Below are positions 70 through 60,697 of a stretch of 64,000 bases of DNA, piece after piece (positions within the stretch are counted from its first letter, which is position 1; every line of letters begins with the position of its first letter). Source of the stretch: Mobula hypostoma (Eukaryota); the NCBI RefSeq assembly GCF_963921235.1, contig NC_086097.1, positions 108,502,001 to 108,566,000 on the forward strand. The letters are read 5' to 3'. The notes beneath the pieces were generated by a model that was not told where the DNA came from, did no database searches, and saw only the letters and a program-made list of their open reading frames with translations. A program made the position numbers and the translations under genes.

Positions 70-935
70 TGCTTGTGTTTTCCTCGCCCGCACCCACAGC
101 GATCACTCCCTCTGCGATTCCCTTGTCCATTCGTCCCTCCCCACTAATCTCCCTCCCTGTACTTATCTCTGCAGGAGGTCTAACTGCTACACCTGCCCAT
201 TCACCTCCTCCCTCTCTTCCATTCAGGGCCCAGGGCCCCAATCAGTCTTTCCAGGAGAAGTAACACCTCGCCAGTGAATCTGCTGAGGTTGTCTACCGTG
301 TCCCGTGCTTCCGATGTGGCCAGTGAGACCCATCATAAATTAGGGAACCGCTTTGTTGAACACCTCTGCACCATCTGCGGTAAACGGGACTTCCCGGAGA
401 TCAAACATTTTAATTCCAATTCCCATTCCTGTTCCGATGTGTTCATCTATGGCCCCCTCTTGTCCCAAGATGAGGCCACCCTCAGAGTGGTGGAGCAGCA
501 CTTTATATTCTGTCTGGGTAGCCTTCAACCTGATGGCATGAACATCGATTTCTTCTGGTAAACAAATTCTACCCCGCTCCTCTATTCCCCACTCTGATCT
601 GTCAGTTCTCATCTGCCTATTATTTCCCCCTGTGTTCCTTCCTCCTTCCCTTTCTCCTATGGTCCACTTTCCTCTCCTATCAGATTCCTTCTTGTCCAGC
701 CCTTCACCTTTCTCACCACCTGGCTTCACCGAGCACCTGCCAGCTAGTCTCCTTCCCCTCTCCCCACTTTTTTATTCTGGCATCAACCCCCTTCCTTCTC
801 AGTCCTGATGAAGGGTCTGGGCCCAAAATGTGTCTATTCATTTCCATAGGTGCTGCCTGACCTGCTGAGTTCCTCCAGCATTTTGTATGTTTTGCTTTGG
901 ATTTCCAGCATCTGCAGACATACTGGTGTTTCTGA
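70..935 (+). mobile_element. Penelope-like element 3' part (GIY-YIG remnant, pyrimidine-rich UTR, decayed hammerhead module)
   Basis: ORF 274-561 contains KLGNRFVEHL...HFNSNSHS...EQHFIFCLGSLQPDGMNIDF; cagtcctgatgaagggtctgggcccaaaa at about 800-828. Confidence 0.85.
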
Positions 936-939
936 TTAG

Positions 940-1600
940 CTAGTCCTGTTTGCCTACATTTGGTCCGTATCCCTCAAAACCCTTCCTATGGATATACCAG
1001 TCCAAATGTGTTTTAAAGTTTGTAATTGTACCAGCCTCTGCCACTTCCTCTGGAAGCTAGTTCCATACAACACCTTTCTGTGTGTGAAAAATCTGCCCCA
1101 CAAGTCCCCTTTAAATTCTTACTCCTGTCACATTAAACCTATACCCCTGGTTTTAGACTCCCCGGCCTTGAGGAAAAGGCTGTGACCTTCCACCTGATAT
1201 ATACCCCTCTTGATTTTATAACCCTCTATCAGGTCGCACGCCCCCCCCCCCCCCGGCAGCTTCCTTGACTCCAGAGAAAACAGTTCCAGTCTATTCAGTT
1301 TTTCTTTATAACTCAAGCCCTGGTGCCAGCAACATCCTTATGAATCTCTTCTGGACCCTCTCTAGCTTTATCACGTCCTTCCTACAGTTTGGTGACCACA
1401 ACGTCATGCAGTACTTAAAGTGTGGTCTCACTAATGTCTTAACGCAGTTGTAATATGCAATATGACAATTCAACCCTTGTATTCAATGCTCCAAGCAATG
1501 AAGGCAGGTACATCATACGCCGTATCACCTTGTCTATCTGTGTTGCCACTTTCAGGGAACTATGTACTTGCACCCCAAGGTGACTTTGTTCCACAGAGCC
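940..1600 (-). mobile_element. CR1 LINE 3' fragment
   Basis: Minus ORF MSYKEKLNRLELFSLE...DLIEGYKI, the CR1 ORF2 C-terminus. Confidence 0.8.
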
Positions 1601-3902: not shown

Positions 3903-4087
3903 GGAGCAGTCTCTGGTGTCCTTCTTGTGACTCCCAACAACATTATGTTCGATCCTCACAAGCATGATCCTTTAGTAAAAGAACATGGCTGCGCGGAGTA
4001 TGGCATCATGTGTCCCATGGAGGAGATCCTTTCTGCTGCTATGTACAAGGATGTTTTGGACAGTAAAATCAAAGAATCTTTGCCTCC
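3903..4087 (+). CDS. OXR1: OXR1 coding exon (GRAM-like region)
   Basis: Acceptor ttttccattacag| and donor |gtaag; 185 nt, phase 0 to 2; translates GAVSGVLLVTPNNIMFDPHKHDPLVKEHGCAEYGIMCPMEEILSAAMYKDVLDSKIKESLP, matching vertebrate OXR1 as recalled (GTVSGVLLVTPNNIMFDPHK...). Absent from the ORF track. Confidence 0.95.
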
Positions 4088-4386
4088 GTAAGAGCCAACA
4101 TTTAATCTCTGTTAACAATAATTTAATATAACATTTTTGTACTGTATTGGAGTTCATAATTAAAATTCCATACTTGGGGCCAAGAGGACCTCCCTTTCTT
4201 ACTAATAAAAAAAATAGCCATTTATTCAGAAATGTATGGCACAAGTGCATTTCATTCTATAATATCTAGTCCAATTGATTAAGAGCTCTCCAGGCTAATT
4301 CTAACTCATGACATGCCATACTACACCAAATGCTTGTCAAGTTTTGTTTTCTCTCCTTATTACCATTTCAGACAATCAGTTCTTGA

Positions 4387-4652
4387 AGCGTGGTAGCTTA
4401 GTGGTTAGCACAGTGCTTTACAGTTCTAGCGACCTGGGTTCATTTTCCGCTGCTGCCTGTAAGGAGTTGGTACATTCTCCCTGTGACTGCGTTGGTTTCC
4501 TCCGGGTGCTCCAAAGATGCGCCATTTGGTAGGTTAGTTGGTCGTTGTAAGTTGTCCTTTAATTAAGCTCGGGTTAAATCAGGGGTTGCTGGGCAACGTG
4601 GCTGGAAGGGCCAGAAGGGCCTATTCTGCACTGTATCTCAATAAATAAATAA
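4387..4652 (+). mobile_element. tRNA-derived V-SINE (HE1-like)
   Basis: A box (tagcttagtggtt), B box (gggttcattttcc), V core ggtttcctccgggtgctcc, and (aata)n tail. Confidence 0.8.
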
Positions 4653-6174
4653 TTATCTATTTGAGGACAAGAAAGGCAAGTAAATACTCATTGGTAGAAC
4701 TCCATGTGCAATAGTGGAAGAGGGACTCTGGAACCGCACTGCACATTGGCTAGATCAGGCAGATTTCCTAGCCTGCAAGGATCTGGTAGGTTTTCACAAC
4801 AATTCATTAGTTTCATATTAATTGTTATTGATGCTAGTGTTATTTACATAGCACACTAACAAAATTACTAATGAAATTATTAAAATGCTATTTTACTGAT
4901 GTAAATACCTGATTATTTTGGTAGCTTCACGTTCATTCAATGGTGTATTATTAAATGATACATTTTAATAGGATATTAACTCTGTGATATTCAGAGTTAT
5001 CAGTCAGAGATCAGCTTCACAGTTTAGTTAAAATAGATGCCATCTGGATAAAAACCAGAGATAGGGCCTTTATAAATAAGCTGCAGCATACCCAGATCCT
5101 GTAGGTTCACCGGAGTTAGATTTGCGTGTTTCCTAATATTGTCAAAATTACTGTGGATTAATCATTTAGTTTATCCTGAAAGTGACTAATATGCTTAAAC
5201 TTCAATTATACTGTTATAAACTTCTGAAAATACCAACAGTAAGCATTTTAGTACAGTTTTGCTTAAAAATGTTAAGTTAGCTTAACTTTAAATTGTAGAA
5301 TGTCAAATGTGCATTTTGTTTTTTTAAAATAAATTGCTATTACATTGATTACAGGAAAATAATTTGGGTTTGTAAAGCTTCAGTACACTTGTCCTCCAAT
5401 TAGTAAGAATGAGATGTTTATAAAAGCTTGTAGAACTTCAGTGTAAAGGAAAACCTTCCTATTAATATTGAATAGAACTTGGTCACTAACCTTCCTGTAC
5501 ACTAAACAAGCCATCACATCTGTGATGATGAAGGTGCTTTCCTAAACAAATCCCAGTTGCTTACATTTGACCCTCGAAACCTTTCCTATCCACAAACCTG
5601 TCCAATTGTATTTTAAATATTGTTATTGCAGCTGCCACTACCACTTCTTCAGTCAGCTTATGTTATATGGCTACCCTCTATGTTAAAATATTTCCATTGG
5701 ACCATGGGGAAATTGGATTGATAGATAAAAGTTTAATCCTATTTACTTAAATAACTGAACCTGAATTCTTTAAAATGGTCATAGAGTATTTAAAAGGGTA
5801 ACTTAGGAAATTAGAGGCTGCAACTGGCAGGATAGGCTGCAACCTTTTCTTGGGGCCTTTTCTCAAGATGAAGATCTGAACAATTACCTGATCGCATCCT
5901 TTAAAGTTAGGACTATTTTTTCCCGGGTAGACAGGGTGTTTGCTTCCAGGATGTGACATAGCCCGTGCATACCAGCCATCGCCATCCCTGAAGAAATAGT
6001 TAATGATTTCAGGTGAAAGTTCCTGATCTGTGGTACTCTGCGACTGGTATTGTAGCAGTTACATTGAACTGATCATCCAGAGGCCCAGTCTAATGATCCG
6101 GAAGCACATGCAAATCCCACCATGGCAAGTGTGAAATTTAAATTAGATGTGGAATAAGTTAATATCAGTAAAGC

Positions 6175-6252
<78 letters not shown>
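6175..6252. repeat. (CA)n microsatellite flanked by (TA)n
   Basis: 30 perfect CA units at 6181-6240. Confidence 0.98.
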
Positions 6253-7519
6253 GATAAAAAAACCATTTAACAGAATAACAAATTATGTATTTAAGTAACA
6301 TAGAGAATAAATGAGAGCACTATCAATACAACTACAGTACTATAAAATAGTGTGTTAATTCATAATAGTTATCAACGGAGGATTTCATCCAGTGCATTCT
6401 TTTAATTGGTTGCAATTGAACAAAATCAGTGCCGACACCCAGTGCAGATAACGGACTGCCTTCACACAATGCTGCTGACAATTACATCCTCCAAATCTTC
6501 ACATTTTCAGAATTGATTTACAAGCTGGTTCTTTATTGCAAATCCAACACCTTGGATCCTGGGCTCAGCAGCTGCCTTCCCTTTCTAGAGAAGGGTGTAA
6601 CTACCCTTCTCCTCCTTTAGTTGCCTTTCTTCTGCCAGATGGGTTTCAGAAAGAGCAGCTATGTCAATCTATCAACCTGACATCTCAGTTCTCTGCAGTG
6701 GTTGCAGTTGTCCCCTCTGGTTCATCATTGGTTGCACTACTAAGTTAGCAAATTTCACGACACATGCCAGTGATAATAAACCTGATTCTGACTCTGATTC
6801 TATTAATCAGTGTTCACACATTCCAGGTTCCTTGGGTCACGTTTCATCGTTTCTGACCCTTCTTGATCCCTCTAGACACAGTAATCTGGTTAGCAGGTTT
6901 TGAAGACCCTTTTTCCATTCCCTTCCCCAAGTGGGAAAGCAGAGTGGATCCTAAATAGGGCTGTTTAGTCATGGTGAAGGAAGGGCCCTTTCTCCCTTAG
7001 ACCGAGAGGCCAGCAACTGATCAAACACCCACCGCCCAATGTCTTGGGGATTCCAGACCTCACATTCCTTCCTACTTCACCACTTGCTGATCACCAGGGG
7101 ACTTAATCCCGGATACTGGGGTGGGTTCCCTTAATGGAGAACACCTGTGCATGATTCAATCTAATGTGGGGAGGCTGATGCATGAGCAGCCACCACAGGG
7201 TCCTTGACAGATTGGGGTCAGGGGTCAGTGTCCAGTGGCATGGTGTGCAAGATGACCATGTCCTTTCACTGCTGCAGCATTCCTCTGCATTCACTGCTGC
7301 TGTGATGCACCAGCTCCATCATTGAGGTCTTGGTTGGATCACTGTTTGTCCGGAGACTCGCCCCTGACCTTATTGCCATTGGTGATCCTACCAGGAGCTA
7401 AACTCTAAATGGTGTCACTCTCTGGAGCTCAGGAACTCACAAGCCTTTCTTCCACAAAGACGGCCATCCCTCCCTTGGCAGCATTCTCTTCTCAAAAGCA
7501 GACATTTACTCGGAGATAA

Positions 7520-7710
7520 TCCACTGCCTGAGTCATGCCTCTGGAGCCTATGCAAGATAAAGGAAAAGAGTCTTTGAAGACTGCACCCTACGGGTCCAAA
7601 CAAAGCTTTTGGTCTATCGAACAGTCATACTTCCTAGTACATTACTGTGTGGAGCTAAGTGATGAATCATTTACACGAGGCACCTGAAAGCCCTGGAACA
7701 GTATATGGGA
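7520..7710 (+). mobile_element. RTE-clade LINE RT C-terminal fragment
   Basis: Degenerate KLLVYRTVILP...RHLKALEQY motif. Confidence 0.55.
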
Positions 7711-8079
7711 AAATCCTTATGATAGGAGGTGCAGGAGGCTGAAGGAACAGCTTCCCCTTCACCAAAAGATTTCTGAATGGTCCATGAACCCATGCTCTCA
7801 GATGTTGACTCTTAAGGAAGGAATTCGTCAGATTTAAAGTGTCATATATTCAATGTTTGTTTTTCTCTGAAATATAAATATGTGAAGGTTTTCACAATTT
7901 CTCACCTTCCTAGTAACATTCTGTGTCATTTTCAGGTTTATATATTGTAGATCTGTTCAAGTTGTTCCATTCGTAGTCTTAGTTACTTGAATCCTGAATT
8001 AAATACCCACACATTTGAGATGGCTTGGAACAACACTGATGAGGTCATGTTAATCCAGAGACTGGTCAACATTGTCAAA

Positions 8080-11000
8080 GTACTGAAAAATTATTTGGAC
8101 ATCCCCTAATGCCTACACCTTGATAAGGATCCTACTCTGGACCATCAGAAAACTGTCCGACACCATCACTGACCTCATCAACTCTGGAGACCTTCCATCC
8201 ACTGCCACCAAACTCATAGTTCCCTTACCGTTTCTCGCTTCCACTTCCTACCCAAGATCCACAAACCTGACTGTCCAGGTAGACCAATTGTCTCTGCTTG
8301 CTCCTGCCCTGCTGACCTCATGTCCTCATATCTTGACTCTGTTCTATCCCACTTGGTTCACTCCCTTCCCGCCTACACCCGTGACACTTCTTATGCTTTG
8401 GATCTCCTCAGTAACTTTCAGTTTCCTGGCCCAGACCACCTCATTTACACCATGGATGTCCAGTCCCTATACAGTTCTATGCCCCATCAAGAAGGTCTTA
8501 AAGTTCTCTGCTTCTTCCTCAATTAAAAAAAAATCAGTACCCCTCCACAATCACCATCCTCTGTCTGGCAGAACTGGTCCTCACCCTGAACAATTTCTCC
8601 TTTGGCCCCTCCCAGCTAAGCCTGCTTTTTCATTGACCACATAGAACAGTCCATGTTCCAAGCCTTCCCTGGCAATGCTCCCCAACTCTTCCTCCGCTGC
8701 GTTGATGACTGCATTGGTGCTGCTTCATGCACACATGCTGAGCTTGTCAATTTCATCAACTTTTTAACCAGTTTCCACCCTGCCCTTCAATTCAGTTGGT
8801 CCATTTCGGACACCTCTCTTCTTTCTTGGATCTATGTGGCTCCATCTCTGGAGACAAACCGTCCACCAACATCATTTATGAACAAACTGATTCCCATGGT
8901 TATCTTGACTATACCTCTTCCCACCCTATCTCCTGTAAAAATAATATTTACTTTACTCAGTTCCTTTACCCCAGGGATGTCCTCCTTTCAAGAACAAGGT
9001 TTCACTCCCTCCTCTATTCATGATTCCCTCACCCACATCTCCTCCATTTGTGCAATTATCTGTGCTCACTCCCTCTTCCCATCACCAAAACAGTGATCAG
9101 GTTCCTCTTGTCCTTATGTACCACCCTGTAAGCCTCTGCATCTAACACTTCATTCTTCACAACTTTCACCATCTCCAAAGGAATCCTACCACCAAACATA
9201 TTTACCTCCTCCCCCACCCCCGCACCTCCACTGTCCGCAAGGATCGCTCCCTCCATGATTTCCTTGTTCATTTGTACCTCCCCATTAGTCTCCCTCCCGG
9301 CACTTATCCCTGCAAGTGGCCCAAGTGCTACACCTGTCCATTCAGCTCCTCCCTCACCTCCATTTAGGGCCCCAAACAGTCCTTCCAGGTGAGGCAACAA
9401 TTCACCTGCGAATCTGCTGGGGTCATCTATTGTGTCTGGTGCTTCTGATGCAGCCCCTCTACATTGGTAAGAGGTATCGTAAACTGGGGGGGGGGGGGGG
9501 CTGCTTCATTGAGCACCTCCGCTCTATTGGCCAAAAACGGAAATTCCTGGTAGCTAAACTTTTTAATTCCAATTCCCATTCCCATTCGGACATGTCAGTC
9601 CATGGCCTCTTCTTGTGCCACAATGAGGCCACCCTCAGGGTAGAGGAACAACACCTTATATTTTGTCTCAGTATCCTCCAACCTGATGGCACGAAGTTTG
9701 ATCTCTCCTTCTGGTTAAAAAAAAAATCCGTCCCCCTCCCCTCTTCTTCTATTCTTCACTCTGTCCTCTTACAGTGGTGCTAGAAAGTTTGTAAACCCTT
9801 TAGAATTTTCTCTGTTTCTGTGTAAGTATGACCTAAAATGTGATCAGATCTTCAAATAAGTCCTAAGACTAGATAAAGAGAACCCAATTAAATTAAAAAA
9901 ACAAAAATATCATTATACTTGTTCATTCATTTATTGAGAAAAAAGATCCAATATTACATGTATTTATTGGAAAAAGTATGTGAACCTCGAGGATTATCAG
10001 TTCATTTAAAGTGGAAATTAGAGTCAGGTGTTTCAGTCAATGGGATGACAATCAGGTGCGAGTGTGGGAGGCCCTGCCCTATTTGAAGAGCATAAACCTG
10101 GGTCTTCACTATCAAAGTCTGATCTTCGCCGCACAGGTTTTTGGAAGTGTGCCATGCCTGGATTGAAGCGGCCTCAGGAAAAAGAGTAGTTGATGCTCCC
10201 TAGGCTGGAAAAGGAGACAAAACCATTTCCAAAGTGTTTGGGCTTCACCAATCCATAGATAGGCAGGTGGTGTACAAATGGAGAAATTCAACACCATTGT
10301 TATTCTCCCCAGGAGTGGTCAACCAACAAAAATCACTCCAAGAGCAAAGCATGTAATATTTCAGGAGGTGACGAAGAACCCCAAAGTAACATCTAAGAAG
10401 CTGCAGGCCTCTCTTGCATTGGCTAATATCAGTGTTCATGAGTCTACCATCAGGCATACCCTGTACACAGTGGTGTTCATGGCAGGATTGCAAGAAGAAA
10501 GCCGCTACTCTCCAAGAAGGTCATTACTGACCATCTAGAGTTTGCTAAAGACCACGTGGGTAAGCCAGAAGGCTATTGGAAAAATGTTCTGTGGACCAGT
10601 GAGTCCAAAATAGAACTTTTTGGCTTAAATGGGAAGCATTACATTTGACGAAAAGCAGACACTGCATTCCACCTCATCCCATCTGTGAAACATGCTGGTG
10701 GCAGTGTCATGGTCTGGGCCTGCTTTGCTGCCTCGAGACCAGGGCTGCTTGCCATCATTGATGGAGCTATGAATTCTGAATTGTACCAACAAATGTTGCA
10801 GGAAAATGTCAGGGTATCTGTCCGTGAACTGAAGCTCAAGAGGAAGTGGGTCATGCAGCAGGACAACGACCCTAAACACACAAGTCAGTCCACCAATGAA
10901 TGGTTAAAGCAGAAGAAATTTCACGTTTTTGAATGGCCAGGTCAAAGTCCTGAACTTCATCCCATAGAAATGTTGTAGAAGGACCTGAAGCAAGCATTTC

Positions 11001-11670
11001 ATGCAAAGGAAGCCCACCATCATCCCAGAGTTGAAGCAGTTTTGTAAGGAGGAATGGCCTAAAATTCCTCCAAGCTGATGTGTAGGACTGATCAACAATT
11101 ACCGGAAACATTTGATTGAAATTATTGTTGTACAAGGGGGTCACATCACTTACTGAAAGCAAAGGTTCACATACTTTTTCCAACGAATACATGTAATATT
11201 GGATCATTTTTCTCAATAAATAAATGAAAAAGTGTGTTTTTCTGTTATTTATTTAATTGGGTTATCTTTATCTGGTTTTAGGATTTACACGATCACATTT
11301 TAGGTTATATTTATGCAGAAATAAAGTTCTAAAGGGTTCACAAACTTTCTAGCACCACTGTACCTCTTCTCATCTGCCTATCATTTGCCCCGTGGGGGTC
11401 CCCGCCTCCCTCTCTTTCTCCTACGGTCCACTCCTCTCCTATCAGATTCTTTCCTCTCCATCTCTTTACTTTCCCTCCCACCTAGCTTCACCTATCACCT
11501 TCGAGCTAACCTCCTCCTCCTCCCCTCACCTTTTTATTCCGGCATCTTCCCTCTTCCTTTCCAGTTTTGAAGAAGAGTCTCAACCTAAACTGTTGACTGT
11601 TTATTCATTTCCATGGATGCTGCCTTACCTGCTGAGTTCCTCCAGCATTCTGTATGTGTTGATTTGGATC
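8080..11670 (+). mobile_element. Penelope-like retroelement (Neptune-type, RT + GIY-YIG), pseudogenised and split by a Tc1
   Basis: RT motifs IYTMDVQSLYSSMPHQEGL and FLRCVDDCIG; Cys linker YPCKWPKCYTCP; GIY-YIG FTCESAGVIYCVWC; the 3' UTR resumes at 11361 and ends in a decayed hammerhead module. Confidence 0.9.
9772..11360 (+). mobile_element. Full-length Tc1 transposon (IR/DR type) with dead transposase at about 10154-11156
   Basis: TA-CAGTGGTGCTAGAAAGTTTG...CAAACTTTCTAGCACCACTG-TA; TIRs of about 215 bp with inner direct repeats; motifs LPRSGQPTKITPR, KHAGGSVMVWACF, QQDNDPKH, SPELHPIE; stops and frameshifts present. Confidence 0.96.
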
Positions 11671-12104: not shown

Positions 12105-12883
12105 AGAACTAAAATATTCTGCATCAATCAAAGATGTACATCAATTACACCAGATTACAAGCAATACAGAAGAGATTGATTCCAAATTACGAGACACAGG
12201 GAACGACAGCACTAGTACAGCACCCCGAAGCACAGAGGAGTCCTTGTCTGAAGATGTATTCACTGAATCGGAACTCTCCCCTATTCGAGAGGAGCTGATG
12301 TCTTCTGATGAGCCTCGGCAAACAAAATCATCAGGAGCCTCTTTGGAATCTGTGCAAACAATAAACCAGGCTGCTCTGGAAGGATGCCTCTTGCCTTCAT
12401 CTGTGGAGGTGCCAGAAACTAATGATGAAAAATTATTGACTCATACTGATGACATTCCAGCTAGCAAAGCAGTTGAAGTAAAGGGAAATGGACACCAAAC
12501 TGTGGAAAAATCTCTGAGCGACGGCAGCACTGCTGATTCTGGTGCACATCAAAGGGAGGGCGAGCAGCGTCCCCCTGATAGTCATAATGTCAGCAGTGAG
12601 CACCAAGACGCTGAAGCTAATGAACTAAATGTAGCAAACAGAACAACTCCGACTGCACTTGCTTTGGATTCCTCAGAGGTGTGCGAGCAAGAGAGCACGG
12701 ACGAGACAAGGAAATCGGGGGAACGGTGTGCTCGGGATTCAGAGACTGAGGTGGAGGAGCTGCGAAAGCTGTGGAAGACTCATACTATGCAACAGACCAA
12801 GGAGCAAAGGGAAACGGTACAACAGGCTTCCAACAAAGAAGTCAGGCAGAAAACTGGGCAAGTTACAGAAGGATCTCTAGAAG
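12105..12883 (+). CDS. OXR1: OXR1 large central coding exon
   Basis: Acceptor ttcttttctattag| and donor aag|gtacac; phase 2 to 1; contains STAPRSTEESLSEDVFTESELSPIREEL and EELRKLWKTHTMQQTK, which indicate OXR1 rather than NCOA7. Confidence 0.95.
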
Positions 12884-13599
12884 GTACACTTTCCTAATAA
12901 AATCATTGTACTCATGTTGGCATTATGACACAGATTGTTGTGGGGGATAGGTCGGGAAGAACTGATGGGTAAGTTATATGAGGTGTAGTAAAAAGTATCT
13001 GATGAGGTACCTGGTAAAAGGATATGACATTAAGTGAGGGCTCATGGTGTGAACAGATAAAGAATTACTTACAAAACAGCTTGCTTTAAGGTTGGCTGGC
13101 TGTTTGTCTGCAGTAGGCATCTGTACTTTGCCTGCATTTACATTTTATGTTATTGCTATTACATGTAACATATCTACATTTGTTGATTATACAAGGCAAG
13201 GTGTGAGGACAACAGAGGTCTAGAAATTGGTTGGCCTATTAGCCAGTTCCTCACATGCAGGAAGGCCTTTCCTGTTGAAGGAAATTGGACACAATGCAGG
13301 GCTGAGACACAGGGAAAGAGGCAGAGAGTGGTGAAATGGCTGGAGGTTGAGTAACCACTCATTGGTCAGTAGGGGGAAATTAGAGTGAGACTATCTTGTT
13401 TAAAAAAGAGAAAGGTTGGATGAACAGCAGGCGTGTTGGATAAGTCTCTGAGGTGATGTTACTATAGCGGGAGGGTGGGGTGGTCATAGTGGGTGATGGG
13501 CAGAGATCCGGTCAACTAGTGTAATGAATCCAGTTAGCCTGGCGTGCGTGTGTGTGTGTGGGGAGGGGAACGCACATGTTTAGAGTAAAAAGTTAACAA

Positions 13600-18574: not shown

Positions 18575-18579
18575 TAAAC

Positions 18580-19400
18580 TAATCTCTTCTGCCTACACAA
18601 TATCCATATCCTTCTCACATTCATGTGTCTATCTCACTGTCTCTTAAAAATCTCTAATTTGTCTGCCTCTACCATGACCTCAGGCGTACCGGGCACCCAC
18701 CACTCTGTGTAACAAAACTTGCCCCTCATCTTATTTGAAATTACCCCCTATTACCTTAAATGCATGCCCTCTGGTATTAGACATTTCAACCCTTGGAAAA
18801 AATATATTGTCTGTCTACGCTATCTATGCCACTCATAATCTTATAAACCTCTATCAGATCACCATTCAGTCTCTGCTGCTCCAGAGAAAACAACCCAAGT
18901 TTGTCCAAATACAAACAAGAGAAAATCTGCACATGCTGGAAATCCAAGCACATGCACAAAATGCTGGAGGAACTCAGCAGGCCAGACTGCACCTATAGAA
19001 AAGAGTACGGTGAACATTTTGCGCCGACACCCTTTATCAGGATCCGAAACATCGACTGTACCCTTTTCCATGGATGCTGCCTGGTCTGCTGAGTTCCTCC
19101 AGCATCTTGTGTGTGTTGCAAGTTTGTCCAACTTCTCGTTATAGCACATGCCCCATAATTCAGGCAACGTCCTCGTAAATCTATTCTGCATCCTCTCCAA
19201 TGCCTCAACATCCTTCCTATAATTGTACGACCTGGGGTTCTCAACCTGAGCTTCAAGACCCCTTGCTTAATGGTATTGGTCCATGATATAAAAAACGTTG
19301 GGAATCCCTGGGGTAACCAGAGAAATATGCAATACTCCTCCAGATGCAGCCTAAATAGAGTTTTATAAAGTTGCAACATAACTTACTGACTTCTCACTGA
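18580..19400 (-). mobile_element. CR1 3' fragment hosting two later insertions (18909-19118 and an hAT-like mini-MITE at about 19232-19310)
   Basis: LGLFSLEQQRLNGDLIEVYKIM and ERMQNRFTRTLP on the minus strand. Confidence 0.75.
18909..19118. mobile_element. 210-bp inverted-arm element built from two opposed PLE hammerhead modules
   Basis: 13-bp TSD CAAGTTTGTCCAA (18896-18908 and 19119-19131); arms atgctggaggaactcagcag / ctgctgagttcctccagcat. Confidence 0.88.
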
Positions 19401-20609: not shown

Positions 20610-20980
20610 TTCCCTCCACCTCTCCTCTTCCTCTATTCCCCACCCTGACCTTTACTACTTCTCACCTGCCTATCACCTCCCCTTGGGTCCCCCTCCTCCT
20701 TCCCTGTCTCCTATGGTCCACTGTCCTCTCCTATCTGATTCCTCCCTCTTCTTCCCAACCCCTGGCTTCACCTATCACCTTCCAGCTAGCCTCCTTCCCC
20801 TTTCCCCACTTTTTTATTCTGACATCTTCCACCTCCCTTCTCAGTCCTGAAGAAGGGTCTTAGCCTGAAACTTGGACTGTTTGTTCATTTCCATACATGC
20901 TGCCTGACCTGCTGAGTTCCTCCAGTATTTCAGGTGTGTCTCTTTGGAGCTCCAGCATCTGCAGACTTTCACGTGTTTAT
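20610..20980 (+). mobile_element. PLE 3' UTR with hammerhead module (degenerate cleavage triplet)
   Basis: cagtc-ctgaaga-agggtcttagcct-gaaac-ttg-gactg at 20842-20879. Confidence 0.8.
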
Positions 20981-21291
20981 AATATACTGACATTTATTAG
21001 GCTTTGAATGCAAGAGCAGGGAGGTCTCGTTCCATCTTATAAAACATTGGTGAGACCTTTGCTTGGGTATTGTGTGCAGTAGTGTACTGTGCACTCTTTC
21101 CAGCCCTGTCACTGGAGAGAATATTGCCTGGAATGAAATGTTTCATTATGATCACTTTATTTTCTCTGAAGTGGAGGAGGTTAAGAGGAGAAATGATTAA
21201 GATACAAATAATAATGTGAAGTATAATTGGCTAGACTGTAAGATCCTTTCCTCCATATCAGTGGTAGATAAAACCAGAAGACGTGGACATA

Positions 21292-21802: not shown

Positions 21803-22169
21803 GACGTGAACATACATATGGTAAGATGCCAGAGATTTGGAGGGGATCTGAGAAGGACGTTTTTGAAATAGAGAGTGGCGAGTACCTGGAATGCACTGGT
21901 GGAAGCCAAGTTGCTGGCAACATTTAAGAGATATGTAGGTGAGCACTTCAATTGCCCTGGAATAGTGGCCTGTTGGGCAAGTGCTAGAAAATGGAGTGGA
22001 CGTGGATGTCATGGGCTGAATGACCTGCTTTCACACTCTTTCACTTCTAGTCCTATGAAAGATGTGCCAAGTAATAACTTTTATTTGACAGTTAATTCCA
22101 TGCATGTGTGATTACTGAAAGACAGCAATGTCCATGTTAAATCTGCATTAGCAAGGTTAAGTATGCAAG

Positions 22170-33573: not shown

Positions 33574-33634
33574 TAATTTGTGGGTAAAATTTCATAACCC
33601 TAAAGGCAGGAGTTGCCTTTACCTATTTTGTTCA

Positions 33635-45150: not shown

Positions 45151-45903
45151 TAAGATTTCTTCTACTTGAAGTAAACAATGACCTATTAGATTGGATGTAT
45201 CAGCGTTCAAAATACATTTATTATGAAAGTATGTATACATTATACAACTTTGAGATTTGTCTCCTAACAGGCAGCCACGAAACAAGAAACCCGAAAAAAT
45301 CCATTTAAAAAAAGAAGACAGTCGATGTGCAGAGAGAGAGAAAAAAACAATTTGTGCAAACTATAAAAGCAAGCAAATAGCATTCAGAACTGATGTCCAC
45401 AGAAGGGGTCTGTCCACAGACACGAAACCACAGCCTCAGTTCAGCCCAGAGCCAAGTAAACGTTGGGGAACAGCGAGCTGTCCCTCTCCTCCAGCCCTGG
45501 CACCCTGACCTTTTAAATCCGGCCCAGTGCTTAAAACGTCGAAACATCGGGTTCTGTCGCTTTGATCCACTCTGGGGCCTGGACCCCGCCGTTATGAATC
45601 AGCGTGTACCCGACCTTTCCAATTTGGCCAGCACTTACATCGATCGAACCTTTGGCTGTTCCTCACTCACGGGGACAGGTCCAGACTCTGCCTCGCCTTG
45701 CTTCTGCCACATAGAATTACCTCCAAGTCCAAAGGGAAGTTACAGGCTATTTTTTTGTGATGATTGTTTACCAGAGGAAGTATTATTAACAAAGTATTTA
45801 GTTCATAAACAAGAGGAATTCTGCAGATGCTGGAAATTCAAGCAACACACATCAAAGTTGCTGGTGAACGCAGCAGGCCAGGCAGCATCTCTAGGAAGAG
45901 GTA

Positions 45904-45940
45904 CAGTCAACGTTTCAGGCTGAGACCCTTCGTCAGGACT
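45904..45940 (-). ncRNA. Minimal type I hammerhead ribozyme motif
   Basis: Minus strand: AGTC CTGACGA A GGGT CTCA GCCT GAAAC GTT^GACTG. Confidence 0.75.
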
Positions 45941-46621
45941 AACTGAAGGAAGAGTTAGTAATAGATTTGAAAGTGGGAGGGGGAGAGATCCTGCAGTGAA
46001 GTCGAGATGGTTGATCTTCCATCGGCAGTTAGAATATGAGATCCAGAGCAGCCAGAAGACCAGAGCGGGGTGTCCATGAAGAAGAGAGTGTTGAAGACGG
46101 GAGAAGCGGCCATCGGTGGGGGTGGAAGAGTCCTTGCGAAAGCAGGGTCTCCCAGTGGCCACACATTTTAATTCCACATCCCATTCCCATTCTGACATGT
46201 CTATCCACGGCCTCCTTTACTGTAAAGATGAAGCCACACTCAGGTTGGAGGAGCAACACCTTATACTCCGTCTGGGTAGCCTCCAAACTGATAGCATGAA
46301 CATTGACTTCTCTAACTTCCGCTAATGCCCCACCTCCCCCTTGTACCCCATCCATTATTTATTTTTATACACACATTCTTTCTCTCACTCTCCTTTTTCT
46401 CCCTCTGTCCCTCTGACTATACCACTTGCCCATCCTCTGGGTTTTCCACCCCCACCTTTTCCTTCTCCCTGAGCCCCCTGTCCCATGATTCTCTCATATC
46501 CCCTTGCCAATCACCTGTCCAGCTCTTGGCTCCATCCCTCCCCCTCCTGTCTTCTCCTATCATTTTGGATTTTCCCCTCCCCCTCCCACTTTCAAATCTC
46601 TTACTAACTCTTCCTTCAGTT

Positions 46622-46658
46622 AGTCCTGACGAAGGGTCTCGGCCTGAAACGTCGACTG
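46622..46658 (+). ncRNA. Minimal type I hammerhead ribozyme motif
   Basis: AGTC CTGACGA A GGGT CTCG GCCT GAAAC GTC^GACTG; predicted cut after 46653. Confidence 0.78.
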
Positions 46659-48724
46659 TACCTCTTCCTAGAGATGCTGCGTTCACCAGCAACTTTGATG
46701 TGTGTTGCAAAGTATTTAGTTGTTTCCTTTGTTTTGTTTGTTAGGTTGTTAGGCCTTTTTGGGGTTAGCTCATAGAGCAAATAACTTCAGCAACTAACTT
46801 TAAGCATCAATTTTGAAATCTGAATATAGATTAAATTCAGAATGCAGCTCTGCACAATGGGTTCCTAAGAGTGATGAATCACAGTTAATGGGAAGACCAG
46901 ACAATGCAGATTAGAATTCATTTGGGTGTCTGTCGCGTGGGTGCCAAGAGGGAGGTGTGAAGGTTGTGTGCCATTTAGAAGAAGCATTGTGGATGCATTG
47001 TAAAAATGGAACTGTCCTTTGATCTTTAGCAATAAAATGTCGTGTAGCGTTAGTTGAGCAGGCTTCTTCCTCTGAAAAGGGTCTCAATATGAAGCCTGCT
47101 GTGTCTGACTTTGTCAGATAAAAAAACTGCTTCGTATCTACCAGTACTTCTGTCTAGTGACTTTGTTCATTCAACAGCATTGTTTGCTACCAATAAGTAG
47201 CTGTTGGGCTTCACCAGTGCCATCTTAAACCGGAAGCCACTGAACCAGAACTGGAACTGATATGTACTAAATGCTGCAGAAGAAGGCAGAGAGCAACAGA
47301 ATGGACAAAGGTGATTGTGCCATTTTGGTCTTAATTGTTTGTGTGAATATAATTGGCATGTTTTGGGAAGAACGAGATACTGAGATGATTGTTTACAGAA
47401 CAATGGCAATATGCAAGCCATTGTCACTGTGCGTATTCAGGTTTCTCGCTATTATTTGTTTATTTGTTATCGCTTTTGGATGGTGAGCACCACTGTGAGG
47501 TTACCATAAATCACTTTATAGGTAATGCAGGTTAACGGGGTGAGGGCACTTAGACATTGGTGTGGTGGAGTGAATCAGCATGGAAGAATGTGGCAATATA
47601 TTGTCAACCAGAATGGTGTACAACTTGGAATAACATACAAATCTTGCTGTAGAATGACCTGGCTTCGAATGTTTGGAAATAATGTGAGATCATACAGAGA
47701 TTGGAACATTATGAAGAACACTTAGCCACTTATGCAAATATTTGGATAGCTATTTTCTACATTGCGTATTGTTAGTGTTATCTCACTTTTACTGTTCTGT
47801 GCCTTGTTTGATTCTGATGTATCGACAGTACAGTTACAATAACCTATTTGTTCCACTAAAAATAGATTACATTTCCAGGAATCTGGGTCTGAATTATTTT
47901 GTACTATCTGTCTTATTGTTTTGAAGGTGTGTGACTTTCTTGTAGACTCTTGATTTATGACTCAACCTTTGGTCAAATGGTTCTATTGCTCTGCAATCTT
48001 ATTTTGAATTTGAAACACAGTTTGCATATCTGTAGTAATTAGTTTTATATTTTTATGGTGTGATTACATCATAAATTTTGCACTTTAAGTGAGTAATATT
48101 GTATTTAAGTTTCCTCTGATTTACATTCTGCAGATCGATTTCCACACAGAATATTTTATAATTCCATAGAAACCAGCAGGGCTAAAACAAAATACTTCAG
48201 ATACAGAAATCTGAAATCAAAGCAGGGAACTCAAAATAAACAGCCTAAGTGGTATCTTTAGAGAGGGGACCAGCTTGAGAAAAGTGCTATCAATCCCAAA
48301 AAAAACTGCTTCTCTTGTCACTGATTCTGCCTGCCCTGTGAAATATTTACATTGTTTTCTTCAGTGGCTAGAATACTGGGTGGTTTCATTTTTCTCCTGT
48401 CCTCTCATTTCTGGATCTCATTTGCTGGTTGTTTGGTTTGCAGTAGTTTTGGTTCAAATATTATGATTTGGGAAGAGAAGAGGTATACAAATGACAAATG
48501 GAAACCCACCCAATTGCTCCCTCATTTCAGGTTATGTTGAATTAGGCCATTCAGAATATTGTATTCTGAATTTAAGACAAATGTCTTTGTATTTCGGTAG
48601 CATCATTCCTGTGCTAGCACTTCGAAAAAGCTATGTATCCATTCCAGATCACATCAATTTGCTGTTGTGTGTCGGAGTTGCACTTGGAATTCTCTTCAAC
48701 TGACACCTGACTCCTTTCTCAGAT

Positions 48725-49835: not shown

Positions 49836-50344
49836 AATGTTCAGCTGGTGTATAGCATGTGCATAGCATTCCTGACATTACTCATTCTTAATGAATACTA
49901 ATGAGACATAATCTGGACAACATCCATCCATGAATACCGTGGGCTGACAGTGCTGGGAATTACTGCCATTTTTTCCCACGGAGCAACGTGTAAACAGCCC
50001 TTGAATTTTCAACGGCTTATTCTAGATTGAAACTCAAATATTTGATATTAAAGATATAAGTTTATTTTGTTGGTTTGGCACTACTATGCCACACTCAGTT
50101 GTCGCAACCCCTTTAAATGTGCTCCATTTTATTTATCTTGCCTCTCCTCCAACTTACAGAGGAATCACTTCACACTTCCTGTGCACTCAACTTCACTTGC
50201 CCATCTCACTGCCAAATTTCCAAGTTTGGTGTCACCTGCAAACTTTTACATTGTGCATTTAATGTACTGTATGTCAAAAAGAGCAGTGATTGTAACACTT
50301 GCCTTTGCCAGTGCTCTCCCCGTTAGGAAGGTTTTCATTGGGAG

Positions 50345-50480
50345 ACCTGATGAAGGATCTCAGCATGAAACGTCGACTGCACTCTTTTCTATAGATACAG
50401 CCTGGCCTGCTAGTTCCTCCAGCAATTTGTGTGTGTTGCTTGGATTTCCAGCATCTACAAATCTTCTCTTCTTTGTGTTT
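50345..50480 (+). mobile_element. Solo PLE hammerhead module
   Basis: ctgatgaaggatctcagcatgaaacgtcgactg...ttggatttccagcatct; stem II is damaged. Confidence 0.8.
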
Positions 50481-50984: not shown

Positions 50985-52082
50985 GGTGGCATGGTACTGT
51001 TGTGGTTAGCACAACACTTTACAGTACCAGTGACCCGGGTTCAATTCCCGCCGCTGTCTGAAAGGAGCTTGCACGTTCTCCCCGTGACCGTGTGAGTTTC
51101 TGCCAGGAGCTCCAGTTCCTCCCACTGTCCAAAAATGTACCATTTGGTGGGTTAGTTAGAAACATAGAAAATAGGTGCAGGAGTAGGACATTCGGCCCTT
51201 CGAGCCTGCACCGCCATTCAGTATGATCATGGCTGATCGTCCAACTCAGAACCCTATACCTGCCTTCTCTCCATATTCCCTGATCCCTTTACCCCACTAG
51301 TCACTGCCTGCCATTCTGAAAAGGTCCCATTTATTCCCACTCTTTGCTTCCTGTCTGCCAATCAATTCTCTATCCACATCAATACCATACCCCCAATATT
51401 GTGTGCTTTAAGTTTGCACACTAATCTCCTGTGTGGGACCTTGTCAAAAGCCTTTTGAAAATCCAAATATACCACATCCACTGGTTCTCCCCTATCCACT
51501 CTACTGGTTACATCCTCAAAAAATTCTGAGATTCGTCAGACATGATTTTCCTTTCACAAATCCATGCTGACTTTGTCTGATGATTTCACCGCTTTCCAAA
51601 TGTGCTGTTATCACATCTTTGATAACTGACTGTAGCATTTTCTCCACCACCAATGTTAGGCTAACCGGTCTATAATTCCCCGGTTTCTCTCTCCCTCCTT
51701 TTTTAAAAAGTGGGGTTACATTAGCCACCCTCCAATCCTCAGGAACTAGTCCAGAATCTAAAGAGTTTTGAAAAATTATCACTAATGCATCCACTATTTC
51801 TTGGGCTACTTCCTTAAGCACTCTGGGATGCAGACCATCTGGCCCTGGGAATTTATCTGCCTTCAACCCCTTCAATTTACCTAACACCACTTCTCTACTA
51901 ACATGTATTTCCCTCAGTTCCTCCATCTCACTGGACCCTCTGTCCCCTACTATTTATTTAGTATATTTACAATATACTAGTTATTGTAAATTGGCCCATG
52001 ATTAGGCTAGGGTTAAGTCTGGGGACTGCTGGGCAGCCTGGCTCGAAGGCCCATTCTGCACTGCATCTCAATAAATAAATAT
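50985..52082 (+). mobile_element. V-SINE split by a CR1 insertion
   Basis: 5' half at 50985-51157 (gggttcaattccc) and 3' half at 51977-52082 with (aata)n tail. Confidence 0.8.
51158..51955 (-). mobile_element. Young CR1 (same subfamily as 26062-27750) with an internal deletion of about 0.9 kb
   Basis: MEELREIHVSREVVLGKLKGLKADK is shared with the 26093 ORF; deletion junction near 51290. Confidence 0.92.
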
Positions 52083-52359: not shown

Positions 52360-52805
52360 AAGCTCCCCCTCCCCCTCCCACTTTCAAATCTCTCACTAAC
52401 TCTTCTTTCAGTTAGTCCTTCATCAGGATCTCGGCCTGAAACGTCGACTGTACCTCTTCCTGGAGATGCTGCCTGGCCTGCTGCGTTCACCAGCAACTTT
52501 GATGTGTGTTGGTAAATGCAGGTTCTTTTTTAACATTTAAGAATAGATTGGACAGATACATGGATGGGAGGTGTATGGAAGGATATGGTCCTGTCTTCTC
52601 CTATCATTTTGGATCTCCCCCTCCCCCTCCCACTTTCAAATCTCTCACTAACTCTTCTTTCAGTTAGTTCTGACGAAGGGTCTCAGCCTGAAACGTTGAC
52701 TATACCTCTTCCTAGAGATGCTGCCTGGCCTGCTGCGTTCACCAGCAACTTTTATGTGTGTTGCTTGAATTTCCAGCATCTGCAGAATTCCTGTTGTTTG
52801 CGTTC
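52360..52805 (+). mobile_element. Tandem pair of PLE hammerhead modules separated by a CR1 tail scrap
   Basis: Direct repeats at 52363-52511 and 52590-52800; second core AGTT CTGACGA AGGGTCTCAGCCT GAAAC GTT GACT at 52666-52701. Confidence 0.85.
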
Positions 52806-55641: not shown

Positions 55642-55804
55642 GGCCGACCACCTGTATGTTTTCTTCGTACAGTGGTCTCCTGACATGTATGGCAATGAAT
55701 CCGGAGAGTCATCGAAGGAGCCAGGATTCATGGTTGCATCAAGGAACGAGGAGTCTGAAATGAGCGAGTGTTCCATCAATGAATCAACATTAAAAGATTG
55801 GGAG
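55642..55804 (+). CDS. OXR1: OXR1 coding exon
   Basis: Acceptor ttgttttgcag| and donor gag|gtaggt; 163 nt, phase 2 to 0; ADHLYVFFVQWSPDMYG...EPGFMV...KDWE. Confidence 0.94.
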
Positions 55805-56229: not shown

Positions 56230-57570
56230 GCCAGGAGAAATTGTCTGCTATGAGTATTAAGGAAAAATGTTGGAAGTCAGGGAACCTCACAGTCTCCCTG
56301 ATGATGATATCTATGGGAAGTCCACCCAGCTGCAGCTACTGACAAATCAAGTGAAGGAATTGGAGCTGGATGTATCCTGGATCATCTGACATTCTGTGGA
56401 TATCATAGGTGAGAGCTTTAGTGAGGTGGTCATACCTCAGGTGCAGGTCACAGATAGACGGGTGACTGCCTGGAGTAGTAAGGGGAGTAGGTAGACAGAG
56501 CTGGATTCCCCTGACTAACAGGAATACCCTTTTGGATACTGTGGCTGGAGGAATGACCTTTCAGAGGCCAGCACCACCAGCTGGGTTAGTTAGTGCCACA
56601 CTGTCCAGCTCTGAGGCCAAAAAAGGGAAGGGTGAAGTCAGGCAGAGAGATAGTGATGAGACCCAATAGTAAGGATGCAGGTAGGGGTTTCTGTGGCTGT
56701 AGTCAAGACTCCAGGGATAGTGTGTTGCCTCACAGTGGATACAGGACATTCTGAGAGGGGAGAGCATGTGGCCAGAGGTCATGGTCCATTTAGGTACCAA
56801 TGACATAGGCAGGAGCAGGGATGAAGTCCCACAAAGGGATCATAGGGAACTAAGCAGAAAGTTAAATGCCAAGAATTCTGGGGTTGAATTCTCCGGATTA
56901 TTCCTAATACCCTTGGCCAGCGAGGTGGGAAATAGATGCGCAGTGCAGTTCAAAATGTGGCTAAGGAGCTGGTGCAGGACGGAGGGCTTCAGATTAATAG
57001 TTCATTGTGCTCTCTTCCATGGCAGGTGAGACCTGTACGAAGAAGGTGGTTTGTATCCGAATTAGAAGAGAACTAATATCCTCGGTAGGAGTTTTGCTGG
57101 TGGTGGGACTGAAGAGCTGAAATGTATTTATTTCAGTGCTGTGGATAAGGAGCGTGAACTTGCAGCCTGCATCAGTACATGGAATTACTATGTCTTTACC
57201 ACTATGGAGACCTGGTTGTGTGAGGGATGGGACTGGTAACTCGATGGTCTTGAGTTTCATTGTTTTACACATGATAGAGGGGGAAGGTAGAGGAGGTGGA
57301 GAGGTTGCACTACAGATAAGGGAGAATGCAACAGCAGTGCTCAGAGGTGACACACTGAAGGACTCATCCACCTGGGCAATTTGGGTAGAGCTCAGAACCA
57401 ATAAAGGTGCAGTTATGCTGATAGGATGATACTGTGGGCTCCCCAATAGCCACCGAGTGGTGGAGGAACAGATAGGTAGACAGATTATGGAAAGGTGCAG
57501 AAGCAACAGGGTTGTCACCATGAGGGACTTTAACTTCCCCAGAATGGACTGGAATATCCTTAATACTAGG
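56230..57570 (+). mobile_element. Old CR1 5' part (ORF1 esterase and start of APE)
   Basis: PEVMVHLGTNDIGR; GRGGGEVALQIRE...IWVELR. Confidence 0.8.
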
Positions 57571-57984
57571 AAGGTTAGAAGAAATGGGAATCTTGGGTGA
57601 ACCGAAAGGTCTTAACTTTAGTCAACAAGGCCCCTGTAATGGGAACAACTTAGTAATTCCATGTTCTGATCCAGGCTCTAAGTTCATCCTCCTTATCCAT
57701 AATGCTCCTAGCGGTGAAATTTGAGCCCATCAGTCCCACCACATTTTTTCAGCCTACCAATTTTTGTCCTTCCTTTCAGTCTTACTTTTCTCTCTGTAAG
57801 ATTGAGGAAGCTAAAACCAGACCGGACCCAGGGCAATAAAAGGTTAGTTGGGAAGTGCTCAAGCAGGCAGTTAAGAAGGCCAAAAGGGGCATTGCAATGT
57901 CCTTGGCGAACAAGATCAAGGAAAATCCCAAGGCCTTTTATTATTATATATTAAGAAAAAGAGGATAACTCTCAAGATGATATA

Positions 57985-60160
57985 CAGTCGAAGTCAGAAG
58001 CTTACATACACCTTGGCCAAATACATTTAAACTTAGTTTTTCACAATTCCTGACATTTAATCCTAGAATCCTAGAAATTGTAATGGGAGATAAGGAGATG
58101 GCGGAGGAACTGAACGAGTATTTTGCATCAGTCTTCACTGAGGAAGACATCATCAGTATACCGGACACTCAAGGGTGGCAGGGAAGAGAAGTGTGCGCAG
58201 TCACAATTACGACAGAGGAAGTACTCAGGAAGCTGAATAGTCTAAAGGTAGATAAATCTCCCAGACCAGATGGAATGCACCCTCGTGTTCTGAAGGAAGT
58301 AGCTGTGGAGATTACGGAGGCATTAGCACTAATCTTTCAAAAGTCGATAGATTCTGGCATGGTTCCGGAATGTCACTCCGCTATTTAAGAAGGGGGCAAG
58401 GAAGCAAAAAGGAAATTATAGACCTGTTAGCTTGACATCGGTGGTTGGGAAGTTGTTGGAGTCAATTGTCTAGGATGAGGTTACGGAGTACCTGGAGGCA
58501 TATGACAAGATAGGCAGAAGTCAGCATGGTTTCCTTAAAGGAAAATCCTGCCTGACAAACCTATTACAATTTTTTGAGGAAATTACAAGTAGGCTAGACA
58601 AAGGAGATGCAGTGGATGTCGTATATTTGGATTTTCAGAAGGCCTTTGACAAGGTGCCACACATGAGGCTACTTAACAAGATAAGAGCCCATGGAATTAC
58701 AGGAAAGTTACATACGTGGATAGAGCGTTGGCTGATTGGCAGGAAACAGAGAGTGAGAATAAAGGGATCCTATTCTGGTTGGTTGCCGGTTACCAGTGGT
58801 GTTCCACAGGGGTCCGTGTTGGGGCTGCTTCTTTTTACGTTGTACATCAACGATTTGGATTATGGAGTAGATGGCTGGCTTTGTGCCTAAGTTTACTGAT
58901 GATACAAAGATAGGTGGAGGTAGTGTAGGTAGTGCTGAGGAAACAGGGAGTCTGCAGAGAGACTTGGATAGATTGGAAGAATGGGCAAAGAAGTGGCAAA
59001 TGAAATACAATGTTGGAAATTGTATGGTTATGCACTTTGGCAGAAGAAATAAATGGGCAGACCATTATTTAAATGGGGAGAGAATTCAAAGTTTTGAGAT
59101 GCAATGGGACTTGGGAGTCCTCGTGCAGGATACCCTTAAGCTTAACCTCCAGGCTGAGTCGGTGGTGAAGAAGGCGAATGCAATGTTGGCATTCATTTCT
59201 AGAGGAATAGAGTACAGGAGCAGGAATGTGATGCTGAGGCTCTATAAGGTGCTGGTAAGACCTCACTTGGAGTACTGTGGGCAGTTTTGGTCTCCTTATT
59301 TAAGAAAGGATGTGCTGACATTGGAGAGGGTACAGAGAAGATTCACTAGAATGATTCCAGAATTGAGAGGGTTAACATATGAGGAACGTTTGTTCACTCT
59401 TGGACTGTATTCCTTGGAGTTTAGAAGAATGAGAGGGGACCTCATAGAAACATTTCGAACGTAGAAAGCCATGGACAGAGTGGATGTGGCAAAGTTGTTT
59501 CCCATGATGGGGGAGTCTAGTACGAGAGGTCATGACTTAAGGATTGAAGGGCGCCCATTCAGAACAGAGATGTGAAGAAATTTTTTTAGCCAGAGGGTGG
59601 TGAATCTATGGAATTTGTTGCCACGGGCAGCAGTGGAGGCCAAGTCATTGGGTGTATTTAAGGCAGAGATTGATAGGTATCTGAGAAGACAGGGCATCAA
59701 AAGTTATGGTGAGAAGGTGGGGGAGTGAGGCTAAATAGGAGAATGGATCAGCTCCTGATAAAATGGCGGAGCAGACTCGATGGGCCAAATGGCCGACTTC
59801 TGTTCCTTTGTCTTATGGTCTTATGGTCTCAAACATTCCCTGTCTTAGGTCAGTTAGGATCACTACTTTATTTTAAGAATGTGAAATGTCAGAATAGTAG
59901 TAGAGACAATGATTTATTTCAGCTTTTATTTCTTTCGTCACTTTCCCAGTGGGTCAGAAGTTTAGATACACTTTGTTAGTATTTGGTAGCATTGCCTTTA
60001 AATTGTTTAACTTTGGTCAAATGTTTTGGGTAGCCTTCCACAAGCTTCGCACAGTAAGTTGCTGGAATTTTGTTCCATTCCTCCAGACAGAACTGGTATA
60101 ACTGAGTCAGGTTTGTAGGCCTCCTTGCTCGCACACGCTTTTTCAGTTCTGCCCACAATA
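57985..60160 (-). mobile_element. Sleeping Beauty-like Tc1 3' fragment; right IR/DR split by a CR1
   Basis: TA-CAGTCGAAGTCAGAAGCTTACATACAC outer DR (arm 57985-58066); IR resumes at 59831 with inner DR cccagtgggtcagaagtttagatacac; minus LWAELKKRVRARRPTNLTQL...KQFKGNATKY*. Confidence 0.92.
58067..59830 (+). mobile_element. 5'-truncated CR1 LINE (RT)
   Basis: [27 protein letters not shown]; (tatggtc)n tail. Confidence 0.93.
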
Positions 60161-60170
60161 TCAGAATGGG

Positions 60171-60697
60171 TCTGATATGTCTGTCCACGGCCTCCTCTAC
60201 TGCCAAGGTGAAGCCACACTCAGGTTGGAGGAACACACCTTATATTCCGTCTGGGTAGCCTCCAACCTGATGGCATGAACATTGACTTCTCAAACTACCG
60301 CTAATGCCCCACCTCCCCCTTGTACCCCATCCGTTATTTATTTATATACACACATTCTTTCTCTCTCTCTCCTTTTTCTCCCTCTGTCCTTCTCACTATA
60401 CCCCTTGCCCATCTTCTGGGTTCCCCCCCTCCCCCTTTTCTTTCTCCCTGGGCCTCCTGTCCCATGATCCTCTCATATCCCTTTTGCCAATCAACTGTCC
60501 AGCTCTTGGCTCCATCCTTCCGCCTCCTGTCTTCTATCATTTTGGATCTCCCCCTTCTCCCTCCCACTTTCAAATCTCTTACTAGCTTTTCCTTCAGTTA
60601 GTCCTGACGAAGGGTCTTGGCCCGAAACGTCGACTGTACCTCTTCCTAGAGATGCTGCCTGGCCTGCTACGTTCACCAGCAATTTTGATGTGTGTTG
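60171..60697 (+). mobile_element. Young PLE 3' fragment
   Basis: Near-identical to 46190-46707; ends in tgtgtgttg. Confidence 0.88.
60600..60636 (+). ncRNA. Minimal type I hammerhead ribozyme motif
   Basis: AGTC CTGACGA A GGGT CTTG GCCC GAAAC GTC^GACTG; predicted cut after 60631. Confidence 0.8.

Follow-up and report, generated by a model that had tools for sequence, protein, structure and literature searches.

The 64,000-nt stretch of the Mobula hypostoma genome analysed here (RefSeq assembly GCF_963921235.1, contig NC_086097.1, positions 108,502,001 to 108,566,000 of the forward strand; hereafter the window, whose positions are used as coordinates) lies in the gene OXR1 and carries 14 hammerhead ribozyme core motifs. 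They are genuine but unremarkable remnant ends of a Penelope-type element with very high copy number. The placement in OXR1 introns proposed by the first-pass annotation was confirmed: the gene is on the + strand, its coding exons were mapped over about -297,000 to +131,761, four of them fall inside the window, and the large one is 92% identical to Hemitrygon OXR1. A mismatch scan recovered all 14 motif copies near the positions where they had been annotated, and the same five that had been called intact, 21355(-), 45905(-), 46622(+), 52666(+) and 60600(+), match the strict motif, with both boxes (CUGANGA and GAAA) and a UH cut site; in the remaining nine a box, a stem or the palindrome is gone. 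Cores 46622 and 52666 lie in the OXR1 intron 31763-55641, while 60600 lies in the following intron together with another GUC core at position 65387 (locus L021). The features of the window that concern the gene and the element are given below, U11.1 denoting U in place of C at position 11.1 and RT reverse transcriptase.

801-836, + strand: decayed older-subfamily core; a GIY-YIG remnant lies upstream of it at 94-553.
3906-4088, + strand: OXR1 coding exon, 5' boundary approximate.
8114-9707, + strand: broken coding remnant with RT and GIY-YIG, left by an older member of this element family.
11563-11598, + strand: decayed core of an older subfamily.
12106-12891, + strand: large OXR1 coding exon, boundaries by tblastn.
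18913-19122: short head-to-head insertion with a 13-bp target duplication, holding a decayed core at 19009-19044 (-) and a half copy (+).
20843-20878, + strand: decayed older-subfamily core in which the boxes survive but not the palindrome or the cut triplet.
21355-21390, - strand: core with U11.1 and GUU, youngest lineage, in the element 21291-21804.
22163-22375: short head-to-head insertion, with a decayed core at 22232-22267 (-).
28867-28902, - strand: partial core that begins near stem II.
31237-31272, + strand: decayed core, downstream of a GIY-YIG remnant at 30781-31078.
31595-31762, + strand: OXR1 coding exon.
45905-45940, - strand: core with U11.1 and GUU, antisense arm of the insertion 45807-46708.
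46622-46657, + strand: minimal core with U11.1 and GUC, sense arm of the head-to-head insertion 45807-46708.
50343-50378, + strand: core with both boxes and damaged stems; the copy starts at the ribozyme.
52414-52449, + strand: core lying 252 nt upstream of 52666, its first catalytic box lost to a small inversion within the core.
52666-52701, + strand: core with U11.1, GUU and a U.G at the base of stem I (AGTT for AGTC), in the element 52589-52804.
55642-55804, + strand: OXR1 coding exon, separating 46622 and 52666 from 60600.
60600-60635, + strand: canonical minimal core (G10.1-C11.1, GUC), cut predicted after 60631, inside the 5'-truncated element 60171-60698.

Of the five strict matches, four (21355, 45905, 46622 and 52666) carry U11.1, three (21355, 45905 and 52666) have a GUU triplet, with GUC in 46622 and 60600, and stem I of 52666 contains the U.G, so that G10.1-C11.1 occurs together with GUC in 60600 only. 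The expected cut positions 46653 and 60631 coincide with the predicted scissile bonds, after 46653 in core 46622 and after 60631 in core 60600. Among the first 100 listed genome matches the triplet is GUC in 94 and GUU in 5, and GUU looks like a product of CpG decay; the AACGTT palindrome of the GUU copies would not make a better stem III because it would pair the core bases A14 and U17. Neither are the 14 cores 14 independent events, since some are arms of single insertions: 45905 and 46622 are the two arms of one head-to-head insertion with a 14-bp target duplication, and the 19009 core is an arm of another. The inversion in 52414-52449 has flipped the first box inside a short hairpin, like flips in loci L078 and L231.

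The Penelope origin of the motif was borne out, the cores being the pseudo-LTR (long terminal repeat) ends of an element that encodes an RT, a linker and a GIY-YIG domain. A search of the genome for the RT gave 64,845 first-look candidates, of which 149 were scored; among 20 long candidates none has a fully open frame, and two have a hammerhead at both ends, 3,552 nt apart in L074 and 3,484 nt apart in L071, with a single frame holding the RT and, at its C-terminal end, GIY-YIG between the pseudo-LTRs. Full-length relatives show the same order (a hammerhead, about 3.5 kb with the RT and GIY-YIG frame, and a second hammerhead), the motif lying 270-400 nt past the stop of a frame with RT, CX3-4CxxC linker and GIY-YIG. 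The Pfam RVT_1 and GIY-YIG matches are both under the Pfam cut-off. The CX2-5CxxC linker and the CCHH motif of the Neptune clade were both found, and an optional tail of 30-40 bp, inverted truncated copies and target duplications are present as well. On these sequence features the element is likely a Neptune-clade Penelope-like retrotransposon, although the linker motif by itself would point to either Neptune or Nematis (PMC8557442). The elasmobranch host was likewise supported, and homologues occur in other rays and sharks, with proteins of Hypanus, Mobula, Chiloscyllium and Rhincodon at 65-79% and further records at about 50%. Some ray proteins annotated under host-gene names (P0123, P0200) match the element at 73-79%, which suggests exonised or mis-annotated Penelope pieces.

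The first-pass annotation had called for a scan with hammerhead models and a genome-wide count. The Rfam scan returned no hammerhead family match (E up to 5); exact matches in the genome numbered 12,484 with a strict C11.1 pattern and 81,991 with a relaxed pattern, against 0 for the reversed-pattern controls of both. Covariation of the stems among related elements shows the fold to be real. A descriptor scan of 80 related metagenome loci, some of which are near-duplicates, found 24 motifs of the same plan, 23 of them on the coding strand, and three shuffles yielded none. Ten of these motifs have the same length; among them 16 core columns do not vary, the boxes and the UH site are kept in all 10, five of the eight stem pairs show compensatory change, and the stem covariation score is 0.73 (0.31 when shuffled, at most 0.17 when slid), a signal that comes from the distant relatives and not from the ray subfamilies. 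Over 177 copies, the latter vary in the upstream part, loop II and the tail and retain the core. Stem III is a loopless palindrome, ACGT in the ray and ACGT, ATAT, AGCT, ACCGGT or others in the relatives, where a palindrome was required by the scan. An extra base between 9 and 10.1 together with the G10.1-C11.1 pair is present in 60600 and in subfamilies B-D, the youngest lineage being without G10.1-C11.1. Boxes, UH site, covariation and published plan all fit the minimal type I hammerhead with palindromic stem III that had been proposed, and the absence of conservation and covariation that would have spoken against it was not observed.

The start and end points of the copies carry information on the RNA from which they were made. 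Among 69 young copies mapped within 864 kb, partly chosen around known matches, 61 end at +63 to +74 or +98 to +112 from the cut site, giving two fixed end points about 66 and 103 nt past it; 15 start at -35 to -26, and none starts at -9 to +5. Many of the insertions have a head-to-head layout. Exact starts counted genome-wide were 125 at -42, 1,706 at -32, 648 at -30, 97 at -16 and 84 at the cut site, with patterns that demand three mismatched bases just before the tested position; the cut-site pattern covers the youngest lineage only and detects 0.28 of the ends as opposed to 0.42 elsewhere, and the detection-corrected cut-site count stays near background. By manual count, 33 of the 84 cut-site matches are stem I fold-back junctions. 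The idea that cleavage has left a fossil trace, with 5' ends accumulating at the cut site, was rejected, no such accumulation being seen in the mapped copies or in the genome-wide counts. Position -32 is the A that forms the first base of stem I, and it lies inside a YYANWYY word, which is an initiator consensus. Since starts at -32 far exceed the controls and the cut site, the templates of the short copies were likely uncut RNA, probably starting at the ribozyme. The counts show that cut RNA rarely serves as a linear template; they do not imply that the ribozyme is inactive.

The most abundant copies belong to a lineage that has changed the ribozyme itself. GCCT (U11.1) is carried by 74 of the first 100 listed relaxed matches, exact U11.1 matches number 50,625 in the genome, and with a linked downstream marker there are 37,664 U11.1 matches vs 723 with C11.1. 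Plain CpG decay was ruled out as the origin of GCCT because most neighbouring CpGs survive and a single clade has the change fixed. A tree was built from 71 rows, with sampling partly pattern-chosen and a bootstrap that is not settled; in it the marked lineage forms one supported clade of 37 rows, all of them U11.1 and with the shortest branches, and older U11.1 copies are intermixed with C11.1 copies; mean divergences are inflated by truncated rows, and the reading is based on the tree and on medians. The lineage has its own RT and GIY-YIG, and no full-length element of it was found, the longest copy (L236) spanning both domains with breaks. The G10.1-C11.1 pair matters for the rate of cleavage; with U11.1, stem II drops in stability from -5.1 kcal/mol to -2.5 kcal/mol, an A-U register being an alternative at -2.2 kcal/mol, and no published rate effect of U11.1 was found in the literature. 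A G.U at 10.1-11.1 also occurs in two of the 24 distant motifs. The youngest lineage has fixed U for C at 11.1, weakening a normally conserved pair, and it kept spreading.

For OXR1 it had been inferred that three intact sense copies could pair in the pre-mRNA and cut its introns, and this was not supported. Sense cores with intact boxes do exist, 60600 is canonical and shares its intron with the GUC core at 65387, and the OXR1 intron is transcribed as judged from contigs; nevertheless, 60600 is separated from 46622 and 52666 by an exon, and a lone unit is predicted to form, with a probability of 0.77-0.89, a rod by pairing GACG in the first box with the CGUC of the cut site, the active dimer lying 9-11 kcal/mol above two monomers in an energy model without tertiary contacts. 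Core 46622 is predicted to be sequestered in full by the antisense arm 45905 about 600 nt upstream (duplex of -205 kcal/mol; probability of stems I and II in context 0.0), while for the closest same-strand pair, 52414/52666, the active form is 16.4 kcal/mol above the best fold, a probability of about 1e-4. Sense copies are not depleted over the gene, with 10 sense and 8 antisense intact cores and 36 sense and 39 antisense decayed ones, small numbers that exclude strong purging only. The exon 55642-55804 was found in 2-4 kb contigs joined to non-intron sequence in three of four guessed RNA runs, this RNA evidence consisting of assembled contigs that carry no ends, strand or level. In published systems, minimal hammerheads are weak cutters even when dimeric (PMC4209133), one required the protein of its element and showed no RNA-seq ends at the site (PMC11167929), one of nine Xenopus dimers cut (bioRxiv 10.64898/2026.07.22.740005), and hammerhead cutting within an intron did not block splicing (work cited by PMC2995048). 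The copies also differ from domesticated intronic hammerheads in being a multi-copy repeat with no sense bias and no helix III. Cutting of OXR1 introns by these copies is judged unlikely, and dimerisation that cuts them to an extent that matters is highly improbable.

We consider it quite probable that the motifs are the pseudo-LTR hammerhead ends of a likely Neptune-clade element, present in OXR1 introns as 5'-truncated passengers and predicted to be inactive there. The element RNA would start at the first base of stem I, and within the tail its protein would initiate reverse transcription; stubs of 100-135 nt would come from priming in the 5' tail and long copies from priming in the 3' tail, and two such complementary DNAs (cDNAs), when joined, would give the head-to-head pairs. 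As a lone motif is predicted to sit in an inactive rod, cutting would need a second copy and probably the protein of the element, would act, if at all, on the element's own RNA, and is likely dispensable for copying. Several points weigh against this account. The core is kept in all ray subfamilies and in distant relatives, which argues for some function; the start patterns are unequal in length, lineage covered and detection odds, and the flanks are non-random; an initiator-like word lies within 7 nt of the core in only seven of the 24 distant motifs; active dimers are probably underrated because the energy model ignores tertiary stabilisation of the core; and the Neptune placement comes from motifs, without a tree holding named references.

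The conserved core and the covarying stems would fit the model of Cervera and De la Pena, in which the ribozyme is active and required, two copies cutting the RNA to unit length for circularisation and copying round. Long copies extend across the cut site, which a circular template would permit, and in the U11.1 lineage activity may persist, the A10.1-U11.1 register being nearly as stable as the G.U. Circles are endless, though, yet about 1,700 detected copies start at -32, copies do not pile up at the cut site, and catalytic mutants of an anole element had no effect on insertion in vitro (PMC11167929), which makes this model unlikely. Somewhat less doubtful, and still improbable, is that the pile-up at -32 marks a stop by a hairpin (fold-back of the cDNA on stem I) or a splice acceptor instead of a transcription start. 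Stem I is an inverted repeat ending exactly at -32, 22 of 30 sampled -32 copies adjoin element-derived, mostly inverted sequence, and helix I is where an intron ends in Drosophila virilis (PMC4209133). The remaining sampled copies adjoin genomic DNA, however, several of them directly and with 10-14 bp target duplications; exact fold-back predicts that AGTC is preceded by TGC or CGC, which holds for about 11 of 100 listed copies, and a splice end predicts -30, with its lower count. A common upstream exon was not found in the 30 sampled loci, nor a GT..AG joint among the joints listed, and splicing into the AG of stem I was rejected. The sequence at 46596-46624 and its equivalents holds a branch-point-like TACTAAC, a pyrimidine tract and CAG or TAG directly before stem I, which in sense copies could act as a splice acceptor; the listed joints show no such use. 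In about 21 of the 100 listed copies that start at -32, AGTC is directly preceded by CGA or TGA (L181, L186, L187, L190, L205 and L206), possibly from a short template jump onto the ACGAAG of the core after the enzyme runs off the RNA end. More speculatively, and with low likelihood, the hammerhead would be the first structure of a capped element RNA and, as a switch gated by protein, would cut off a capped leader of 32 nt to stop translation rather than to make template; the most successful lineage in this ray would have weakened that switch through U11.1 and grown to tens of thousands of copies.

The window also holds sequences unrelated to the ribozyme. Broken integrase-like (Pfam rve) and zinc-knuckle-like frames at 23694-25243 (-) are probably the remnant of an LTR retrotransposon, a Tc1-like DDE_3 transposase remnant lies at 10649-10978, and several remnants with RT and endonuclease resembling long interspersed nuclear elements (LINEs) lie at 26012-27651, 33719-40485 and 56721-61543, some of them being 94-95% inverted repeats tens of kb apart. 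Clusters of A-to-G differences at 57147-57187, 57639-57656 and 52015-52016, seen in low-depth intronic contigs of two runs within LINE-like repeats, are consistent with putative ADAR editing of the OXR1 pre-mRNA.

Much of this is already published, namely the motif, its Penelope location, the tail and the inverted insertions. The minimal type I hammerheads that metazoan Penelope-like elements carry (Cervera and De la Pena 2014, PMC4209133; from Xena, Poseidon and Neptune of fish, from coelacanth and from Xenopus) share with the ray motif the lack of loop 3, the palindromic 15.2-16.2, the extra base between 9 and 10.1, the short helix I, the occurrence in both pseudo-LTRs and the mostly solo or opposite-strand dispersed copies; unlike them, stem II of the ray motif has only 4 bp and the youngest lineage carries U11.1, and the ray has about 82,000 matches vs 4,000-9,000 reported for coelacanth and Xenopus, with search methods that differ; the parts of that paper used here name neither sharks nor rays. 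Neptune-clade elements of the endonuclease-bearing (EN+) group (Craig et al. 2021, PMC8557442) are alike in RT, CX2-5CxxC linker, GIY-YIG with CCHH, pseudo-LTRs, inverted truncated copies and optional 30-40 bp tail, the linker being shared with Nematis. The anole Poseidon PAc (Frangieh et al. 2024, PMC11167929) likewise has two internal starts of reverse transcription that set the tail, an uncut RNA template and no ends at the cut; its frame starts inside the hammerhead, whereas the likely start codon of the ray element is about 135 nt past the cut, and the parts of that paper used here describe no fixed 5' end at stem I for PAc. Non-LTR retrozymes (bioRxiv 10.64898/2026.07.22.740005) also have type I hammerheads derived from Penelope pseudo-LTRs and are reported in one chondrichthyan; they form tandem non-coding arrays, whereas the copies in the window are dispersed ends of a coding element. 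A small retrozyme-like array was seen at L231:1420-1750, with three tandem 145-bp units, each bearing a sense and an antisense hammerhead end. The suggestion that the family may be uncharacterised in elasmobranchs stands to the extent that no description of it was found in the accessible literature on shark and ray hammerheads and Penelope elements (the variant survey of Lunse et al. 2017 being known via PMC6765202 only) and that shark and skate names had no match in two supplement files of PMC4209133; it is narrowed by the 2026 preprint with its hammerhead retrozymes in one chondrichthyan genome.

The consequence for OXR1 is little, the copies in its introns being passengers among tens of thousands. 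The function of Penelope hammerheads has been called unclear (PMC8557442), and the genome of this ray offers a large natural record on their role, in which short copies would derive from uncut RNA beginning at the ribozyme and a lineage without the conserved G10.1-C11.1 pair became dominant. If the ribozyme were indeed a switch on the capped RNA, the ray would hold a natural pair of strong and weak ribozymes for deciding what Penelope hammerheads do.

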